DNA of 64,000 nt from Escherichia phage vB_EcoM-101112UKE3-1, in sequence record MZ234013.1, one strand, 5' to 3'. The notes under the pieces are model-generated. The model was not told the DNA's origin. It saw only the letters and a program-made list of their open reading frames with translations, and searched no databases. A program made the translations under genes and the position numbers. Shown one piece after another: positions 965 to 53,726 of the stretch. How positions within the stretch are numbered: the first letter of the stretch is position 1; the number at the start of each line of letters is the position of its first letter.

Positions 965-3022
965 ATGATGGAACTCATTACAGAATTATTTGACGAAGAT
1001 ACTACTCTTCCGATTACAAACTTAAATCCAAAGAAGAAAATACCGCAAATTTTTTCAGTTCATGTTGATGATGCAATTGAACAACCAGGCTTTCGTTTAT
1101 GTACCTATACATCTGGAGGTGATACTAATCGCGATTTAAAAATGGGCGATAAAATGATGCATATTGTTCCTTTTACATTAACTGCTAAAGGTTCAATTGC
1201 TAAATTAAAAGGTCTTGGTCCAAGCCCAATTAATTATATCAATTCAGTTTTTACTGTTGCAATGCAAACAATGCGTCAGTATAAAATTGATGCCTGTATG
1301 CTTCGTATTCTTAAGTCTAAAACCGCTGGTCAAGCTCGACAAATTCAAGTTATTGCTGATAGACTTATCCGTAGTCGTTCAGGTGGCAGATACGTCCTTC
1401 TTAAGGAACTCTGGGATTACGATAAAAAGTATGCATATATTCTTATACATCGCAAAAATGTATCACTAGAAGACATTCCGGGAGTTCCGGAAATTAGTAC
1501 TGAGCTCTTTACTAAAGTTGAATCGAAGGTCGGTGATGTTTATATCAATAAAGATACTGGAGCTCAAGTAACTAAAAATGAGGCAATTGCAGCATCTATT
1601 GCGCAAGAAAATGATAAACGTTCTGACCAAGCTGTAATCGTTAAAGTTAAAATTTCCCGTAGAGCAATTGCGCAAAGTCAATCATTGGAATCTTCTAGAT
1701 TTGAAACGCCGATGTTTCAAAAATTTGAGGCTTCAGCAGCAGAATTAAATAAACCTGCTGACGCTCCTTTAATTTCTGACGCTAATGAATTAACTGTTAT
1801 TTCTACTTCAGGATTTGCATTAGAGAATGCTCTTAGTAGTGTTACAGCTGGAATGGCATTCAGAGAAGCTTCTATAATTCCTGAAGATAAAGAATCTGAT
1901 GTTAATACAGAAATAAAAAATAAAGCTTTAGAAAGATTACGAAAAGAATCTATTACTTCAATAAAAACTTTAGAAACTATTGCTTCTATAGTTGATGATA
2001 CTTTAGAAAAATATAAAGGTGCTTGGTTAGAAAGAAACATTAACAAGCATTCGCATTTAAATCAAGATGCTGCGAATGAGTTAGTACAAAATTCTTGGAA
2101 TGCAATAAAAACAAAGATTATTCGAAGAGAATTGCGTGGATATGCTCTTACCGCTGGATGGTCACTACATCCTATAGTCGAAAATAAAGATTCATCTAAA
2201 TACACACCGGCACAAAAACGCGGAATTCGTGAATACGTAAGTTCAGGATATGTAGACATAAATAACGCTCTTTTGGGATTATATAATCCAGATGAGCGTA
2301 CAAGTATTTTGACAGCATCTGATATAGAAAAAGCTATTGATAATTTAGATTCTGCCTTTAAAAATGGTGAACGATTACCAAAAGGTATTACTTTGTATCG
2401 TTCACAACGAATGTTACCTTCAATATATGAAGCACTGGTAAAAAATCGAGTTTTTTATTTTAGAAATTTTGTGTCAACATCATTATATCCAAACATTTTT
2501 GGTACTTGGATGACTGATTCAGCTGTTGGTGTTTTACCAGATGAAAAGCGTTTAAGTGTTTCTATTGATAAAACTGATGAAGGACTAGTAAATTCTAGCG
2601 ATAATTTAGTTGGAATTGGATGGGTTATTACTGGGGCTGATAAAGTCAATGTTGTTTTACCAGGTGGAAGTTTAGCACCTTCAAATGAAATGGAAGTCAT
2701 TTTGCCACGTGGATTAATGGTCAAAGTTAATAAAATAACCGATGCATCTTACAATGATGGAACAGTTAAAACTAACAACAAGCTTATTCAAGCTGAAGTT
2801 ATGACCACAGAAGAACTCACCGAATCGGTAATTTATGACGGTGACCGTCTAATGGAAACCGGCGAAGTAGTTACAATGACAGGTGATATTGAAGTAGAAG
2901 ACAGAGTTGACTTTGCATCATTTGTTTCATCAAATGTTAAACAGAAAGTAGAATCATCTCTTGGAATTATTGCGTCTTGTATAGATATTGCAAACATGCC
3001 TTACAAGTTCGTTCAAGGATAA
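965..3022 (+). CDS. alt: Alt ADP-ribosyltransferase (packaged, injected protein), copy 1
   Basis: 685 aa; N-terminal MELITELFDE capsid-targeting/gp21-cleavage-type leader; ART R-S-E type motifs LYRSQ, FVSTSL, EMEVILPRG; position next to gene 30 as in T4. Confidence 0.85.
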   Translation: MMELITELFDEDTTLPITNLNPKKKIPQIFSVHVDDAIEQPGFRLCTYTSGGDTNRDLKMGDKMMHIVPFTLTAKGSIAKLKGLGPSPINYINSVFTVAMQTMRQYKIDACMLRILKSKTAGQARQIQVIADRLIRSRSGGRYVLLKELWDYDKKYAYILIHRKNVSLEDIPGVPEISTELFTKVESKVGDVYINKDTGAQVTKNEAIAASIAQENDKRSDQAVIVKVKISRRAIAQSQSLESSRFETPMFQKFEASAAELNKPADAPLISDANELTVISTSGFALENALSSVTAGMAFREASIIPEDKESDVNTEIKNKALERLRKESITSIKTLETIASIVDDTLEKYKGAWLERNINKHSHLNQDAANELVQNSWNAIKTKIIRRELRGYALTAGWSLHPIVENKDSSKYTPAQKRGIREYVSSGYVDINNALLGLYNPDERTSILTASDIEKAIDNLDSAFKNGERLPKGITLYRSQRMLPSIYEALVKNRVFYFRNFVSTSLYPNIFGTWMTDSAVGVLPDEKRLSVSIDKTDEGLVNSSDNLVGIGWVITGADKVNVVLPGGSLAPSNEMEVILPRGLMVKVNKITDASYNDGTVKTNNKLIQAEVMTTEELTESVIYDGDRLMETGEVVTMTGDIEVEDRVDFASFVSSNVKQKVESSLGIIASCIDIANMPYKFVQG

Positions 3023-3025
3023 ATC

Positions 3026-5083
3026 ATGGAACTTATTACAGAATTATTTGACGGCGCTTCGGCGCCGGTTGTTAACTTAAATCCTAAGCATAAAATACCA
3101 CAAATTTTTGCTATTCAAGCCGGCGAAGAAAGCGTGCTTCCTGGATTTAGATTTTGTACATACACCTCTGGTGGTGATACGAATAAAAACGTTAAGCCAG
3201 GCGATAAAATGATGCATATCGTAATGATAGGTGTTAATGAGAAACTATCATTAGTTAAGCTTAAAAACTTGGGTGGAAATCCAATTGGTGTCATTAATGC
3301 CGTTTTTGATACTGCTCTTCAAACAATGAAACAGTATAAAATCGACGCATGCCTATTCCGCGTACTAAAAAGTAAAACAAATGGCGCAGCTCGTCAAATG
3401 CAAGTTATTGCTGACCGTTTAGTACGTACTAAAGGAGCAGGTCGATATGTTCTTTTAAAGGAAATCTGGGACTATGATAAGAAATATGCATATATTATGG
3501 TTTACCGTAAAAATGCCAATTTAGAAGACATTCCAGGTGTACCTCCTATTTCAACTGAGTTATTCACAAAAGTTGAATCAAAGGTCGGTGATGTTTATGT
3601 AGACGTTAAAACAGGAAATGCTGTTCCTAAAGCTGTCGCTGTTGCTGCTTCTATTGCTTTAGAAAATGATAAGCGCACGGACCAAGCTGTTATTCAGAAA
3701 ACTAAAATCAGTCGTCGATTAGCAGCACAAGCTCAATATTCTACTGTTGATGCTTCACTTCAGGGTGATAGCTTTGCTGCCAAGAAATATCAAGAGTTTG
3801 AATCTAAAGTTCCGGTATATAAAGCAGAAGGTCCGATGAACTCTGGCGTTATCCAGATTGGTTCAAACTTCAGCAAAGGAGCTATCGGTGGTATGAGAAG
3901 TGCTTCTCGTTTTAAATCTAACGATTATGAACTAGAAAGCTTCCGAAATCATATTGCATTGGCCCATGCACGTTTACGTGATCCATCTATCAAGTTGCAG
4001 AGCGATATAACATATCAAGGTTCTCAAGAATATTTAAAGAATAAAGAATTCTTTGATTATAAAACTGATAAAATTTTAAGCGATCTTGCTGACATTAATA
4101 TTTCTAATAGCTTTGATGTTATTAAGAAAATTATCAATGATTTGGTTAAAGGTTCTAAAGCCACGCCAGATGAAAAGACAGCTATTATTCAATTTGTAAT
4201 GAATGGCATTTATAAATTGATTAATGAATCTGCTGCCCAGGCATATGAATACGCAAGCACCGAAGTAGCTCCAAAAGGACTGACTCAGGCTGAATCTGAT
4301 GTAATTGAAGATTATTGTGCAGATTCATATGTTGAAATGAACTCGTTCCTTTTGGGTAAACCAGATTCTACCCGTGAAGAATACATGGAACGAGCTATTA
4401 AGCACATCGAGACGTTAGATTCTGCCTTTGCCAAAGGATCAGTTCTTCCTCCAGGAACTACACTTTACCGTGGGCAAGAAGTTACCTTTAAAACTTTGCG
4501 TCATAACATTGAAAATAAAATGTTCTATTTCAAGAACTTCGTATCCACATCGCTTAAACCAAATATCTTCGGTGAGCATGGTAAAAACTATATGGCTCTA
4601 GATGATTCTGGCGCAGTATTTTCTGGCGAAGGAGAAGGTTCCGTTGATACAGAAGATTTGATGCATATGGGTAGTCATTCTACATATGCTAATGAAGATG
4701 CTGAAACTAGCGTGGGTATGGTAATTAAAGGAGCTGAGCGAATCAAAGTTATCGTTCCAGGTCATTTATCAGGATTTCCATCAGAAGCTGAAGTTATTCT
4801 ACCACGTGGAATTTTACTGAAGATTAATAAAGTAAGTACGTACTTTATGAAAGAAACTGCTTATAACAAGTATCTAATCGAAGGTACAATCGTTCCTCCT
4901 TCTGAACAATTAGAAGAATCAGTATATGATGGAGACCATCTAATGGAAACTGGTGAAGTTCGTCCAATGGCTGGATTTAATCAATTCCTTGTAGAAGAAT
5001 CAAAAGAAGAGGAAAATGAAGTTTCTCAAATCTTGGCTTCTTTGGTTAACATCAACGGAATGTCTAAAAAGTTCAAAATGTAG
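3026..5083 (+). CDS. Alt-family ADP-ribosyltransferase paralog, copy 2
   Basis: 685 aa; same N-terminal leader (MELITELFDG...NLNPKHKIPQIF); conserved LYRGQ, FVSTSL, EAEVILPRG; central region diverged from copy 1. Confidence 0.8.
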   Translation: MELITELFDGASAPVVNLNPKHKIPQIFAIQAGEESVLPGFRFCTYTSGGDTNKNVKPGDKMMHIVMIGVNEKLSLVKLKNLGGNPIGVINAVFDTALQTMKQYKIDACLFRVLKSKTNGAARQMQVIADRLVRTKGAGRYVLLKEIWDYDKKYAYIMVYRKNANLEDIPGVPPISTELFTKVESKVGDVYVDVKTGNAVPKAVAVAASIALENDKRTDQAVIQKTKISRRLAAQAQYSTVDASLQGDSFAAKKYQEFESKVPVYKAEGPMNSGVIQIGSNFSKGAIGGMRSASRFKSNDYELESFRNHIALAHARLRDPSIKLQSDITYQGSQEYLKNKEFFDYKTDKILSDLADINISNSFDVIKKIINDLVKGSKATPDEKTAIIQFVMNGIYKLINESAAQAYEYASTEVAPKGLTQAESDVIEDYCADSYVEMNSFLLGKPDSTREEYMERAIKHIETLDSAFAKGSVLPPGTTLYRGQEVTFKTLRHNIENKMFYFKNFVSTSLKPNIFGEHGKNYMALDDSGAVFSGEGEGSVDTEDLMHMGSHSTYANEDAETSVGMVIKGAERIKVIVPGHLSGFPSEAEVILPRGILLKINKVSTYFMKETAYNKYLIEGTIVPPSEQLEESVYDGDHLMETGEVRPMAGFNQFLVEESKEEENEVSQILASLVNINGMSKKFKM

Positions 5084-32166: not shown

Positions 32167-34677
<2,511 letters not shown>

Positions 34678-47500: not shown

Positions 47501-48058
47501 CTATGACCTCTCATACACATAGCTTCTTAATTTATTAGCCCAACGACTCCAATTTCCAACTATAGTTTTAGTATAATTTTTAACGAGAGTTTTTCTTACT
47601 GGAGCAGGAGGATCTGTCGGTTCAGTAGTATCAGAAGATGACCTAGAATTACTGCCAGAACCTCCAGATTCACTTTGTTCTTGGTAGTCATATATTAATG
47701 TTACTTCGTAAGTGAATGTCTTCTGGAGGTTTTGAGGAGCTTTCCATAAATACAACTGAGTATCAGAATCAGTAGGAAGTTCTTCCCATGAAGCAGCAGT
47801 TTTAAATTCATCGCCTAAACGATATTTCAACGCGTCATTTCCAAATCCAAACACAGATTCATATGTTCCGTATAAGCGATTTTCTTCTACTAAAACCCCA
47901 GGAGTTTCTTCGTAACTAGTTATATTTATAGATACTAACGTTTCACCTGTTTCTAATTGAGCGGTAAAGGTGACGTCGATAGAAGAACCTTCCATGGATT
48001 CTCCTAAATCAGCGCTCATTGGAAGTATATTAGCCAATGTCAATCCTCGATCCATCAA
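47501..48058 (-). CDS. 5.1: hypothetical protein gp5.1-like
   Basis: 185 aa between gene 5 and 5.4; acidic Ser/Thr/Glu-rich. Confidence 0.55.
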
Positions 48059-49757
48059 TTGTGTATTGACCAGATGAAATAGAACTCATAGATGCCATTT
48101 TTTCTGTCCAATCACCACCAACGTCCCAATCAACTGTCCCAGCAACTTTCCAAGAAAGATTTCCATTTACTGTGTTAGTTTGATTTCCTTCAACTAAAGT
48201 GGTAGCATCTCCTTTAACTGTGATGTCAGCATTACCTTCAACTACAATAGTAACATTACCTTTAACTAGGATAGTTCCATTGCCTTCAACAGTTTTCGTT
48301 TCGTCGCCACGTACAAATATTGTATTGCTTCCATCTATCTGGTGAAGACGATTATCCATGTTGTAATAAATTTCTGATCCACCGACGTTAGTCTTTTTAT
48401 CACCGGCTACCAAAAAATTACCATCAGCGTTGGTTATATCATACAAATTATCAACAGTTTTTCTTGTTCTTCTTCCTGACGGTGATACTTCTTCATAAGT
48501 TCCAGTTGGATGAACTAATCTGTATCGTTCTTGCCCAGGGGTATCATCAAATTCCTGAATATGTCCACTTTCAGTTTCCATTGTATGCACATAAGGATAT
48601 TCACCTTTATATGAAGAAACTGGTTCTTTGAATAAAATTCTCGAGTCATTTGGAATAGGAGGGTCAGCAGGGTCAGAAGATTTAGCTACAGTAGCAGCCA
48701 TTGCTGATAGAGACCTAGCTGGGGTTTTCACTTCAACGCCATATGATTCTAAATTTCCCGTAAGAATAATCATGGTAACACGGGATGCACGGCCTTTTGT
48801 TTGTTGATACCACAATGAATCACGACCGGCTTTATATGCTTTTTCCCAATCTCCTGCTAACATAGCAGTTAACATTGTGTTAAATTTAGCTACACCGCCA
48901 ACACCCATCTGAAACGCCATATTTTCTAATGCCATTTGACGAGAACGGTTGACAGCTTGCCAGACTGGTCCTACTTTAGAATGTGATTTAATATCCCTTT
49001 GCATATCAGCCAAATCACGTTCAAATAAAGTCGTCGCCTCTTCCATCGTAATAGAACCTGGGTTTCCAGTAATTTCACGACCAACTTGTTTTGATAAAAC
49101 TTTATTAATTTGAGCCATATCACGAACTGGCTGCTTCATGATAAGATGACCAATACCAATTGTCGGATATCCTTCTGTATCCCAATAGACTTTTAGTCTT
49201 AATCCTTCATCACGGCGAAGCATTTCAGCCATTGACATATTTGGATTATCATCGGTTGGAATCTCTGATAGTGGTCTATCATCGGGATTTATTGCAGTGT
49301 CTAAGTTACTATCTTGGATAATGTTAGAAGACGAATCATATCCTACTTCTCCGCCTTGGTTTAATACATTAGTATCATTTCCTAAACGTCTAGGATATTG
49401 CCCAGTTGGGTCAGAAAATCCTTCAAGTCTATTCGGTTTTTCGCGAACTATTCCACCATACGTGCCAAGGACAATTCCGTTAGTTTTCCATTTGTCTAAA
49501 AAATGACCATAAACTCTAGTTCCTTCTACCGGTCCAGTAACAGAACCTCCAATTCCAGACATTGCTGCAGAAGTTATAGGTTGAATAACTGACATCCATG
49601 GTAATTTTTCAGTTGGAATACCCATTACATCGCCTTGTGCTCTTTGAGGTGGATGCAGACCAACCACACGAACACGAACACGACCTAATTTTAATGGGTC
49701 CATTCTATCTTCAACAACACCAACAAACCAATTAAGGTTATTACTTATCATTTCCAT
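48030..49757 (-). CDS. 5: baseplate central spike / tail lysozyme gp5
   Basis: 575 aa as T4 gp5; C-terminal repetitive VxGx beta-helix-like repeats (VEGNGTILVKGNVTIVVEGNADITVKGD...); synteny. Confidence 0.9.
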   Translation of the reverse strand: MEMISNNLNWFVGVVEDRMDPLKLGRVRVRVVGLHPPQRAQGDVMGIPTEKLPWMSVIQPITSAAMSGIGGSVTGPVEGTRVYGHFLDKWKTNGIVLGTYGGIVREKPNRLEGFSDPTGQYPRRLGNDTNVLNQGGEVGYDSSSNIIQDSNLDTAINPDDRPLSEIPTDDNPNMSMAEMLRRDEGLRLKVYWDTEGYPTIGIGHLIMKQPVRDMAQINKVLSKQVGREITGNPGSITMEEATTLFERDLADMQRDIKSHSKVGPVWQAVNRSRQMALENMAFQMGVGGVAKFNTMLTAMLAGDWEKAYKAGRDSLWYQQTKGRASRVTMIILTGNLESYGVEVKTPARSLSAMAATVAKSSDPADPPIPNDSRILFKEPVSSYKGEYPYVHTMETESGHIQEFDDTPGQERYRLVHPTGTYEEVSPSGRRTRKTVDNLYDITNADGNFLVAGDKKTNVGGSEIYYNMDNRLHQIDGSNTIFVRGDETKTVEGNGTILVKGNVTIVVEGNADITVKGDATTLVEGNQTNTVNGNLSWKVAGTVDWDVGGDWTEKMASMSSISSGQYTIDGSRIDIG

Positions 49758-50331
49758 AAGATTTCTCCATTATACGTATAAGGTCGTTCATAAATGAATT
49801 AATGTCTGATTTTGCTATTATTTTTATTTGACGAAGTTTTTCATTTTCAAGAACAGCATCTTCATACGTATTAACAGCAGCAAGTGCTCCTTCATATTGA
49901 GGATATTTTCTAGCTTTATCACCTTTATCATACCAAACATATGGATTATCATCGTATGATATTAAATTATAAAATTTTTCACCGTTCTCATTCACATGAT
50001 ATACTATTTGGTCTCCACCTACATTTTTGTATTTTTGTATAGATGCTTGATAAGCTGCTTCTTGTGAAGTAATCCATCCATAATACGGGTCATAATTATC
50101 ATTACACATCAATAAAACCCAATACAACTGTGGATTTCCATATATAGTATTTGCTAATTCTTCCGGGCGTGGTGAACCTTTGATATAATAAGTACGTAAG
50201 CGGTATCCCGCAAGAGCGCGTTTAAAATAGTCTTTATAGTTTCTAAAAATATCTGTCATAGGAATAGTCGGCGCGTTTTTATTCACCGTTTTGGCCGCAT
50301 ATTCAATCGGATCAAAAAATGTAAAGAGCAT
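49741..50331 (-). CDS. 53: baseplate wedge protein gp53
   Basis: 196 aa as T4 gp53; synteny. Confidence 0.8.
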   Translation of the reverse strand: MLFTFFDPIEYAAKTVNKNAPTIPMTDIFRNYKDYFKRALAGYRLRTYYIKGSPRPEELANTIYGNPQLYWVLLMCNDNYDPYYGWITSQEAAYQASIQKYKNVGGDQIVYHVNENGEKFYNLISYDDNPYVWYDKGDKARKYPQYEGALAAVNTYEDAVLENEKLRQIKIIAKSDINSFMNDLIRIMEKSYGNDK

Positions 50332-50344
50332 GGGCCCTCCTGTT

Positions 50345-50352
50345 TATAAATA
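50345..50352 (+). promoter_or_regulatory. late promoter TATAAATA for gene 4
   Basis: tataaata about 27 bp upstream of gene 4 start. Confidence 0.55.
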
Positions 50353-50359
50353 TATTATC

Positions 50360-50367
50360 TATTTATA
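50360..50367 (-). promoter_or_regulatory. late promoter TATAAATA for gene 53
   Basis: Reverse complement of tatttata about 29 bp upstream of gene 53 start; divergent from the gene 4 promoter. Confidence 0.55.
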
Positions 50368-50378
50368 AGGAGAATCCA

Positions 50379-50831
50379 ATGGCATATTCTGGAAAATGGG
50401 TTCCTAAAAATATATCAAAGTATAGAGGTGACCCTAAAAAAATTACGTATAGATCAAATTGGGAAAAATTCTTTTTTGAATGGTTAGATAAAAATCCAGA
50501 AATTATTGCATGGGGTAGTGAAACAGCAGTAATTCCTTATTTTTGTAATGCAGAAGGGAAAAAACGTAGATACTTCATGGATATTTGGATGAAAGATTCT
50601 TCTGGACAAGAATTTTTTATTGAAATAAAACCTAAAAAAGAAACACAACCACCAGTTAAACCAGCACATCTAACAACCGCAGCGAAGAAAAGATTTATGA
50701 ATGAAATTTATACATATTCTGTTAATACCGACAAATGGAAAGCAGCGCAAGCTTTAGCTGAAAAGCGTGGAATAAAATTTAGAATTCTGACAGAAGATGG
50801 ATTACGAGCTCTTGGCTTTAAGGGGGCATAA
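50379..50831 (+). CDS. 4: head completion protein gp4
   Basis: 150 aa as T4 gp4; AGGAG RBS; synteny. Confidence 0.8.
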
Positions 50832-51658
50832 TGGCTATTTTTCAAATAATTAATGAAAGCACTCCCCAAGTTCCAAAGGTTAAGCAATCATTAAACGAAA
50901 AGAAATGGATTCAGATAGGTCTTGAATATAAAAAGGCCAAAGCAAAAGGAATGACAGGAAAGCAATTTGCTGAAGAAAGAGGAATCAAATACTCTACGTT
51001 TACTTCAGCAATGTCAAAATATGCTTCAGGAATTAAAACGGCTGAAAAGATTCAAAAGCTTGAATCAAAACCAATGAATAAACTCAATAAGCAAGAAAGA
51101 CAACTGCTTATGATAAATTCATTCAGACAAACATTGCGCGATAAAATTCGTAATGAAGGTGCAGCAATTAATAATAAAACCAGAAAGTGGTTTGCTGAAA
51201 CTATTAAGCAAGTAAAAGGACATAAGGTTGTTCGCCCGCAGCCGGGACGAATATATGCTTTTGCTTATGATGCTAAACACAAGGAAACTCTTCCTTACTG
51301 GGATAAATTTCCTTTGATAATTTATCTTGGTTTAGGTAAACATAATTTAATGTACGGATTAAACTTGCACTATATTCCACCTAAAGCTCGTCAGCAATTT
51401 CTAGAAGAGCTTTTAAAGCAATATTCAAATACACCTACTATTACTAATAAAACGAAATTAAAAATTGATTGGAGTCAAGTGAAAGGATTTAGGGGTGCAG
51501 ACCAAATGATTAAGGCATATATACCTGGTAATATTATGGGTAGCCTTGTTGAAATCGCCCCGAAAGACTGGGCGAACGTTGTGTTAATGCCACTCCAAAG
51601 CTTCTACTCCAAAGGAAAACGTTTCTCTGCAAACAAAGTTTGGAGCAATGTACGATGA
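50831..51658 (+). CDS. 2: DNA end protector protein gp2
   Basis: 275 aa (T4 274); synteny. Confidence 0.8.
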
Positions 51659-52314
51659 ATTATGAAAAAATTTATAATTTACTAATTGATAGGGCTCGCA
51701 ATAGAGCCCTTATTGGATATAAAGAAAGACATCATATTATTCCGAAATGTTTAGGCGGTAGTAATGATGCTTCTAACTTGGTTGATTTAACTCCAGAAGA
51801 GCATTATGTTGCACATCAGCTATTAGTAAAAATACACCCAAATTCTTTAAAATTATCTTATGCAGCCATAAAAATGACGGTTTCAACTAAATATGTTAGG
51901 AGAAATAATAAAGTTTATGGTTGGTTAAAAAGAAAACATGCAAATAATATTTCAAATACACAAACTGGACGAAAATATTATAATAATGGTAAAAGATGTA
52001 TAAAATTACATGATGGAGATATAATTCCTGAGGGATTTATTTTAGGAAGAGGATGGAGTCCGACACAAGGAACAACTCATTCTAGAAAAAATGACACATT
52101 TAAAAACAAAAAGCTTCAATCTGCTTTAGCTAATAAACGGTGGGAAAAAGAAAAGAAAATAATGTTAGATAACTTTGGAGTTAACACTATTGATGAAGCA
52201 AAGAAAATTGTTCTTGATTTTAAATCAACTTGTCATCCAAGATATTGGCGAAAGCCAACTTTAGAAAAATTTCCATTTATGACTTCTGCTCGTTTAAGAA
52301 GTCTAATAAATTAA
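51655..52314 (+). CDS. HNH homing endonuclease (mob-like), inserted between genes 2 and 3
   Basis: HNH core [32 protein letters not shown]; ATGA start/stop overlap with gene 2 (the track ORF begins at an upstream TTG); N-terminus [13 protein letters not shown] paralogous to ORF 32939-33751. Confidence 0.75.
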
Positions 52315-52420
52315 TTCTATTATCTTCCATTCTTTTCTGTTGTTTGTTCTAAATGGAATTGAATGGAAGGGACTTAGACCCATTATACCACCAACAGTTA
52401 TAAAGCATTATGAGGAATAT

Positions 52421-52951
52421 ATGTCGCAAGCACTGCAACAAATTTTTAACCAAGCAAATACAACTAACTTTGTAGTATCAATACCACATAGTAATACTAC
52501 ATCTGCTTTTACTTTAAATGCTCAGTCAGTTCCTATTCCAGGAATTAGAATACCTGTTACTGATACCGTGACTGGGCCGTTTGGACTGGGCCGAGCACAA
52601 CGTCCAGGTGCTACATTTGAGTACGATCCACTCATCGTGAGATTTATAGTTGATGAAGAACTTAAGTCATGGATAGGAATGTATGAATGGATGCTAGGAA
52701 CTAGCAACTATCTTACAGGTGAAAATACTGCCCAAAAAACAGGTCCTGAATACATTACGCTTTACATTTTAGATAATAGCAAAACTGAAATCGTGATGTC
52801 AATAAATTTTTATAAGCCTTGGGTTTCTGACCTATCTGAAGTAGAATTTAGCTACACAGAAGATTCAGACCCGGCTTTAGTATGTACAGCAACGATTCCT
52901 TATACGTATTTTCAAGTAGAAAAAGATGGAAAAATTATAGCGGAAGTTTAA
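52421..52951 (+). CDS. 3: tail completion / sheath stabiliser protein gp3
   Basis: Met 28 of the track ORF gives 176 aa as in T4 gp3; synteny. Confidence 0.75.
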   Translation: MSQALQQIFNQANTTNFVVSIPHSNTTSAFTLNAQSVPIPGIRIPVTDTVTGPFGLGRAQRPGATFEYDPLIVRFIVDEELKSWIGMYEWMLGTSNYLTGENTAQKTGPEYITLYILDNSKTEIVMSINFYKPWVSDLSEVEFSYTEDSDPALVCTATIPYTYFQVEKDGKIIAEV

Positions 52952-53000
52952 TGCTTCAGTTTCATGTGTTATAATCTTAACTAAATTTGAGGAGAAACAT

Positions 53001-53725
53001 ATGAAACTAATCTTTTTAAGCGGTGTAAAGCGTAGTGGAAAAGATACTACTGCTGATTTTATCATGAGCAATTATTCTGCAGTTAAATACCAACTTGCTG
53101 GTCCTATTAAGGATGCATTGGCTTATGCATGGGGAGTATTTGCTGCAAATACTGACTATCCTTGCTTAACTCGTAAAGAGTTTGAAGGAATTGACTATGA
53201 TCGTGAGACTAATTTAAATCTAACTAAATTAGAAGTAATCACGATTATGGAACAAGCATTTTGCTATCTTAATGGTAAAAGCCCAATTAAAGGTGTGTTT
53301 GTTTTTGATGACGAAGGACAAGAATCAGTTAATTCCGTAGCATTTAACAAGATTATTGACGTTATAAATAATATTGAAGATCAATGGTCAGTCCGTCGTC
53401 TGATGCAAGCCCTAGGTACGGATTTGATTGTTAATAACTTCGACCGCATGTACTGGGTAAAATTATTTGCTTTAGATTATCTTGATAAATTTAACTCAGG
53501 TTATGATTATTATATCGTTCCTGATACCCGTCAAGATCATGAAATGGATGCGGCTAGGGCGATGGGTGCTACAGTAATTCATGTAGTTCGTCCTGGTCAA
53601 AAATCCAATGATACACATATTACAGAAGCTGGATTGCCAATTCGTGATGGCGATTTAGTAATTACAAACGATGGTTCTCTTGAAGAACTTTTTTCTAAAA
53701 TTAAAAATACACTAAAGGTACTATA

Positions 53726-53726
<1 letters not shown>
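53001..53726 (+). CDS. 1: deoxynucleoside monophosphate kinase gp1
   Basis: 241 aa as T4 gp1; P-loop GVKRSGKDT; GAGGAG RBS. Confidence 0.85.

Follow-up and report, generated by a model that had tools for sequence, protein, structure and literature searches.

A free-standing Mob-type HNH homing endonuclease gene at the end of gene 2 in a T4-like Escherichia phage

In phage T4 (NC_000866) genes 2 and 3 are adjacent, gene 2 lying at 76061-76885 and gene 3 at 75424-75954, and the 106 bp between them contain no annotated or open reading frame. In Escherichia phage vB_EcoM-101112UKE3-1 (MZ234013.1) the same two genes are separated by an additional reading frame, and this raises the question of what the frame encodes, how it came to lie between two genes of a late virion operon and how it could be expressed there. 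We analyzed it within a stretch of 64,000 nt of that record, called here the window, whose positions are numbered from its first letter. The window is a T4-like (Tequatrovirus) segment, oriented opposite to the T4 map. Genes 5 (48030-49757) and 53 (49741-50331) lie on the minus strand, and are followed on the plus strand by gene 4 (50379-50831), gene 2 (50831-51658), the additional frame, gene 3 (52421-52951), gene 1 (53001-53726), and then 57A and 57B. Gene 2, encoding the DNA end protector gp2 (275 aa), was assigned from the list of open reading frames and from how identical genes are annotated in RB32, T4 and other phages, and gene 3, encoding the tail completion / sheath stabilizer protein gp3 (176 aa), from a match to Pfam PF06841 (Phage_T4_gp19, 2e-12) and the annotations in RB32, T4 and others. 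Directly after the gene 3 stop, at positions 52952-52985, gene 1 (dNMP kinase) has a textbook middle promoter of the MotA type, TGCTTCA-12 nt-TATAAT.

The additional frame, on the plus strand, begins with an ATG (51655-51657) that overlaps the TGA of gene 2 (51656-51658) as ATGA, three bases being shared; this arrangement is evident in both the sequence and the list of open reading frames. The frame remains open up to a TAA ending at 52314, and codes for 219 aa counted from the ATG. A preliminary description of this DNA had recognized the overlap but delimited the gene from position 51640, which is merely the first in-frame TTG of the open frame. The ATG at 51655 is the real start, since the product then begins MNYEKIYN..., matching the MNY... 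N-terminus of every homolog. Alignment to T4 defined the frame as a clean insertion of 660 bp. At its right junction both T4 and the window read TAA followed by TTCTATT..., and the spacer from there to gene 3 is identical in the two (52315-52420, 106 bp), apart from population polymorphisms. At the left junction, the final codons of gene 2 are TGG TCA AAT ATC TAA in T4 versus TGG AGC AAT GTA CGA TGA in the window. Both the adjacency of genes 2 and 3 in T4 and the gene 3 start at 52421 had been anticipated in the preliminary description, which had also considered that a conserved T4 reading frame at this junction, or damage to the regulatory signals of gene 3, might be found. Neither was: T4 has no such frame, and the spacer matches that of T4, with the ribosome-binding site of gene 3 and a long hairpin (CUUCCAUUC...GAAUGGAAG, -23.2 kcal/mol) intact. 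This hairpin is found in carriers and non-carriers of the insertion alike; one record labels it a terminator, and in phage KMB23 it contains a 20-bp tandem duplication (AATGGAATTG x2). The GC content of the inserted frame is 29%, versus 33-37% in the neighboring genes.

The frame is not a chance one. In a big protein collection its product has 2861 homologs, of which about 23 are orthologs over the full length (44-63% identity), and PHROG 655 ('homing endonuclease') is matched at 1.7e-57. The copy in the window is itself full length, and shares 99% identity with a cluster that has 137 member sequences. Its N-terminal HNH domain shares 62% identity over 63 aa with T4 MobE (E=2e-26), with no similarity beyond that domain. 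MobE itself, an HNH enzyme that nicks DNA, has been shown by experiment to be mobile (PMC2790892), and in the His-Me finger classification MobA-E belong to the HNH group (PMC5714182). An HNH core of the form ...N...EEHYVAH had been proposed earlier, and the motif is indeed present at residues 23-54. Within the catalytic stretch (residues 25-54; 51727-51816, plus strand), H26, H27, N41, H50 and H54 are invariant in an alignment of 23 orthologs, down to 44% identity, and the profile of these orthologs aligns residue for residue to the HNH motifs of McrA (6ghc, E=0.0066) and of a group II intron maturase (E about 0.007). The motif is there although the Pfam HNH scores of the window protein fall below the gathering thresholds (PF01844, 16.4 vs 21.4; PF14279, 17.6 vs 27.5); PF01844 was matched at E<=0.01 by 17 of the 23 orthologs, and T4 MobE is itself borderline in Pfam (21.5 vs 21.4). 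Beside the sub-threshold HNH matches, the Pfam and NCBIfam scans returned a sole weak match to IscB, which was rejected as spurious.

An AF2 model of the protein (pLDDT 86) predicts a beta-beta-alpha unit at residues 24-60, followed by two small beta-hairpins, a linker that is disordered or of low confidence (137-148) and, at the C-terminus, a region of four helices (152-174, 179-192, 199-205 and 211-218). Fold searches with this model placed HNH domains near the top, at scores without significance. The C-terminal helical region (residues ~149-219; 52099-52311, plus strand) resembles neither MobE nor the paralog described below, and is presumed to be a DNA-binding domain specific to the lineage associated with gene 2. 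The gene is free-standing, since no RNA family, notably no group I intron, was detected with Rfam within 50300-53100. Together, the homology to MobE, the HNH residues invariant among orthologs and a sporadic occurrence among T-even phages bear out the earlier view that a mob-like HNH endonuclease separates genes 2 and 3. We consider it very probable that the insertion (51655-52314) is a free-standing homing endonuclease gene (HEG) of the T4 Mob family (HNH / His-Me finger), inserted exactly at the gene 2 stop codon, with promoterless late expression and, by analogy with MobE, homing at the end of gene 2.

The distribution of the gene is that of a mobile element. About 517 phage records matched the gene 2-gene 3 region; 36 contained the full insert and one, Shigella phage CT01, a deletion remnant, the HEG being absent from T4 and from about 93% of the matching records. 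Carriers include RB32, RB33, HY03, vB_EcoM_112, fPS-2 and CAM-21. As a typical HNH homing endonuclease gene of the Mob type, it has been annotated before, both in RB32 and in dozens of other genomes. The RB32 record (2006) describes it as 'putative site-specific intron-like DNA endonuclease, similar to mobB; not conserved from T4 position', and later records as 'homing endonuclease'; 'intron-like' in this annotation denotes the protein family, the intron itself being absent. By tblastn, 115 records showed a full-length match (at least 80% of the query), and those sampled include Serratia LC53 (62%) and Acinetobacter W16 (57%).

Some copies are decayed. In CT01, an in-frame deletion of 486 nt that starts in the 5' hairpin of the gene (see below) leaves a remnant of 57 aa. 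FL23 and FL44 share a 1-nt deletion in an A-run (equivalent to 51834 in the window) which cuts the protein short immediately behind the HNH motif, and in Salmonella phage Manna a 1-nt deletion (equivalent to 52308) removes the HEG stop, the record annotating an ORF of 431 aa that fuses the HEG, via the spacer, to gp3; this fusion may be real or a sequencing error. Sporadic presence, clean junctions, low GC content, decayed copies and association with the end of gene 2 together form the pattern that is standard for HEGs.

These decayed copies, along with the sub-threshold Pfam scores, would also fit a defunct passenger, that is, a HEG-derived frame that no longer cuts and persists through the rarity of precise deletion or by hitch-hiking with its neighbors. 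I-TevIII of T4 is reportedly a precedent for such a non-cutting passenger, and HEG-less alleles that carry part of the carrier haplotype, described below, could be read as footprints of its loss. Nevertheless, we regard this explanation as improbable. The copy in the window is full length and nearly identical to the other members of its 137-member cluster, the active MobE is equally marginal in Pfam, and the catalytic residues and the whole 219-aa architecture are retained in orthologs from other genera at 44-63% identity, a degree of conservation that needs purifying selection on the protein.

The place of insertion is also conserved. In all seven ortholog loci whose context was read, the HEG directly follows gene 2, the stop/start spacing being -4 nt in five of them and -1 and +1 nt in the other two. 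In contig L104 the ortholog follows gene 2 but its downstream neighbor is not gene 3, which indicates that the association is with the end of gene 2. The ortholog of Serratia phage LC53 (UYM28804.1) was previously described as a homing endonuclease variable between winklerviruses (PMC10132071). An IMG/VR scan for related loci retrieved no true gene-2-site orthologs; all that it yielded were paralogs similar in the N-terminal domain. Klebsiella phage 15882-3-3 (Jiaodavirus) carries a 43%-identical homolog one gene over, between genes 53 and 4 (2501-3609 of locus L005). The adjoining frame of gene 4 (head closure) has been annotated as a pair of overlapping CDS, and the start of this gene may be disrupted or mis-called.

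Regarding expression, an exact-match scan located the nearest exact T4-type late promoter, TATAAATA, upstream of gene 4 (50345-50352, plus strand). Between this site and gene 3 just weak variants with one mismatch occur, making it the nearest plausible transcription start for a gene 4 - gene 2 - HEG - gene 3 message. The 47-bp gap between genes 53 and 4 contains the TATAAATA element back-to-back on opposite strands (50345, plus; 50360, minus). No convincing promoter for the HEG itself was found before or inside its ORF, sigma-70-like matches not exceeding the shuffled expectation in a consensus-level test, and no exact late or convincing MotA-type middle promoter for gene 3 was found inside the HEG ORF. 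Several T4 mob and seg genes are promoterless cassettes, and translational coupling has been proposed for nrdA/mobE (PMC2988022). Translation of the HEG would likewise be coupled to that of gene 2, a suggestion strengthened by the stop/start arrangement kept in the seven orthologs examined.

The late timing expected from the promoter at 50345, shared with virion genes, and a linkage to gene 2 that persists across genera even where the downstream order changes, might instead point to a domesticated nuclease with a benefit for the phage, in place of homing or on top of it. Such an enzyme could cut gene 2 of co-infecting relatives, as a weapon of marker exclusion or interference competition, or, given the linkage to gp2 and gp4, help with DNA ends and packaging; the T4 literature, in which homing endonucleases are linked to the exclusion of T2 markers (PMC2790892), lends this idea some credit. 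We judge it highly unlikely. More than 90% of the close relatives, T4 included, lack the HEG and are viable, which argues against an essential role in packaging or end protection; target-site specificity alone would yield the linkage to gene 2, and the exclusion of competitors is a by-product of homing, not a separate mechanism. Homing by a Mob-type enzyme is therefore the reading followed below.

A second feature bearing on expression is a GC hairpin, AGGGCUC-GCAAUA-GAGCCCU, at codons 13-19 of the HEG (51691-51710, plus strand), where the local fold reaches z=-3.9. The hairpin occupies the same codons as that of T4 mobE, experimentally shown to be a weak internal intrinsic terminator 27 nt after the AUG (PMC2790892), and as that of a second Mob-like copy located between genes 13 and 14 of the window. 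When the protein was kept and synonymous codons were resampled, the window and seven orthologs gave p values of 0.029, 0.05, 0.0055, 0.18, 0.52, 0.001, 0.007 and 0.87, with no excess structure in two of the orthologs (p=0.52 and 0.87). The same null gave p=0.004 for mobE and p=0.002 for the gene 13/14 paralog. Fisher's method yielded a combined p of about 1e-5, for lineages that are not independent. In six sequences sharing a common register, 95% of the hairpin cells were paired, and one pair appeared as GC, AU, CG and UA, that is, with compensatory changes.

By analogy with mobE, this hairpin may act as a terminator. The U-tract that follows it is poor (UAUUGG), and a terminator scan did not call the hairpin at 51691-51710. 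As a control, 76 metagenomic (IMG/VR) Mob-like paralogs were subjected to the same null; the hairpin was mostly absent (median p 0.79), with 7 of the 76 at p<0.05, and we dropped the idea of a family-wide trait or a by-product of the RAxxRA peptide. Among the seven positive paralogs, four (L023, L058, L071 and L099) have starts that overlap or abut the upstream gene; for the other three the upstream gene was undetected or lay 33 nt away. This pattern hints at a link between the hairpin and Mob genes that are embedded in operons and lack promoters. Another predicted structure, an A/U hairpin over the start codon (51656-51681), was set aside as it is explained by the family-wide MNYxKIYN codons.

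Where the enzyme would act was approached by aligning the alleles of eight carrier and eight non-carrier Tequatrovirus phages. Polymorphisms 5' of 51590 and 3' of 52314 are shuffled between the two classes, whereas the last 57 nt of gene 2 show class-specific fixed substitutions (51595-51652, plus strand) in two blocks. Block A (51595-51610) changes LQQFV to LQSFY in carriers, and block B (51640-51652) comprises a synonymous recoding of Ser (TCA to AGC) and a new C-terminus, NVR*. The same pattern was found outside this genus: the Winklervirus pair LC53 (carrier) and CHI14 (non-carrier), nearly identical elsewhere, differ at about 20 positions within the same 58 nt. At the protein level, PLQQF[VM]SKGKR is kept by non-carriers of three genera and altered in six of the seven carrier lineages with a readable gene 2 end, the remaining lineage (L100) retaining QQFM. 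A comparable polymorphic nicking region exists in nrdB in the case of MobE (PMC2790892). These comparisons suggest that the substitution cluster likely marks a homing target or immunity site, and that the target would lie about 45-60 bp upstream of the insertion point.

The two blocks do not always travel together. At least 13 HEG-less records listed (15 by an identity-band count), including vB_SsoM_113, SG1 and T4_ev151, combine a carrier-type block A (LQSFYSKG) with T4-type terminal codons and an empty junction, and these hybrid alleles rule out a strict 'immunity haplotype'. Several origins are conceivable for block A: the polymorphism may be ancestral, it may have been left behind when co-conversion was incomplete, when homing was aborted or when the HEG was lost, or it may mark an empty site selected for immunity. 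Regarding block B, the change of TGG-TCA to TGG-AGC creates a GGAG (51641-51644, plus strand) 10 nt before the HEG ATG that is present in carrier alleles only. The creation of this motif, visible in the comparison with T4, offers a simpler reading of block B, in which GGAG would serve as a Shine-Dalgarno-like element for the HEG.

From these data a working model of a Mob-type homing cycle can be drawn. The promoterless HEG would be transcribed late, within the gene 4-2-3 message, and ribosomes ending at the gene 2 UGA would probably restart at the overlapping AUG, aided by the carrier-only GGAG, giving low-level translation that the hairpin at codons 13-19, in the position of the mobE terminator, probably limits further. 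In a mixed infection, the C-terminal domain would bind, as proposed by analogy with MobE, the end of gene 2 in a related phage that lacks the HEG, and the N-terminal HNH domain would nick or cut near the ...PLQQF(V/M)SKGKR... codons (CAGCAGTTCGTT, encoding QQFV, in T4 gene 2). Recombinational repair from the carrier genome would then copy the HEG into the recipient, and the gene 2 end of the carrier would be protected from its own enzyme by the substitution cluster and by the insertion itself.

We further propose, as a tentative extension that may well prove incorrect, that the stop/start overlap and the codon-13-19 hairpin form a selected expression-limiting module shared by mobE, the HEG and the gene 13/14 copy, and that the gene 2 end records an ongoing arms race, with the hybrid HEG-less alleles as immune empty sites originated by aborted homing or resistance selection. 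If this were true, the HEG would be a second Mob enzyme, one whose predicted target and insertion site are only about 50 bp apart.

The HEG is a further example of how near-identical T4-like phages come to differ in gene content mainly through homing endonucleases. Its importance beyond correct annotation is small; GenBank records and at least one paper already label it as such an endonuclease. The modest additions of our work are a target predicted for the 3' end of gene 2 and the hybrid alleles as candidate immune sites, together with a hint that the internal-terminator design of mobE is reused by other operon-embedded Mob genes.

Among known systems, the closest copies are RB32ORF146c and its near-identical counterparts in RB33, HY03, vB_EcoM_112, fPS-2, CAM-21 and others. 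These are the same gene, with 98-99% DNA identity and the same position and overlap, and no difference of substance from the HEG of the window. The gene-2-associated orthologs of Serratia LC53 (gp151, UYM28804.1) and SP1/4S, of Acinetobacter W16 and of metagenomic contigs are full length at 44-63% identity and keep the same place and stop/start arrangement; six of the seven examined have the hairpin. Unlike the window copy, they reside in other phage genera and hosts, and the register of the hairpin and the substitutions at the gene 2 end vary by lineage.

On the minus strand, the second Mob-like HNH endonuclease gene of the window (32939-33751) is flanked by gene 13 (33748-34677) and gene 14, both of which it overlaps. 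The preliminary description had called the two genes paralogs; this is true of their N-terminal parts, which are 45% identical over 116 aa (E=6e-26), and the strand of the second copy is here corrected to minus. This copy belongs to the same PHROG 655, overlaps its flanking late genes in a similar style, and has a 9-bp hairpin of its own at codons 13-19 (the p=0.002 given above). In contrast to the HEG, it shows no similarity past the N-terminal 116 aa and its C-terminal half contains CxxC zinc-ribbon-like motifs; its insertion site is different, and presumably its target too. Its HNH domain scores above the Pfam threshold (PF13395, HNH_4; 24.4 vs 22).

The most informative comparison is with T4 MobE, a free-standing HNH homing endonuclease encoded between nrdA and nrdB (Wilson & Edgell 2009, PMC2790892). 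Both genes are promoterless cassettes whose start overlaps the upstream stop (by 1 nt for mobE and nrdA, by 4 nt for the HEG and gene 2), both form a GC hairpin at corresponding codons, some 30-37 nt downstream of the AUG, and in both cases a polymorphic patch in an adjoining conserved gene, nrdB for MobE and gene 2 for the HEG, separates carriers from non-carriers. They differ in size (141 aa for MobE vs 219 aa) and in their C-terminal regions, which are unrelated, and in their setting, MobE lying in the early/middle nrdA/nrdB operon and the HEG in the late gene 2/3 virion operon. MobE acts on the 5' end of the downstream gene, whereas the HEG would act on the 3' end of the upstream one, and MobE contains a promoter for the downstream nrdB whereas none is evident inside the HEG ORF for gene 3. 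In the fusion of a Mob-homologous N-terminal domain to a lineage-specific C-terminal region, the HEG has the architecture of the Mob family, and a similarity to mobB is stated in the RB32 record.
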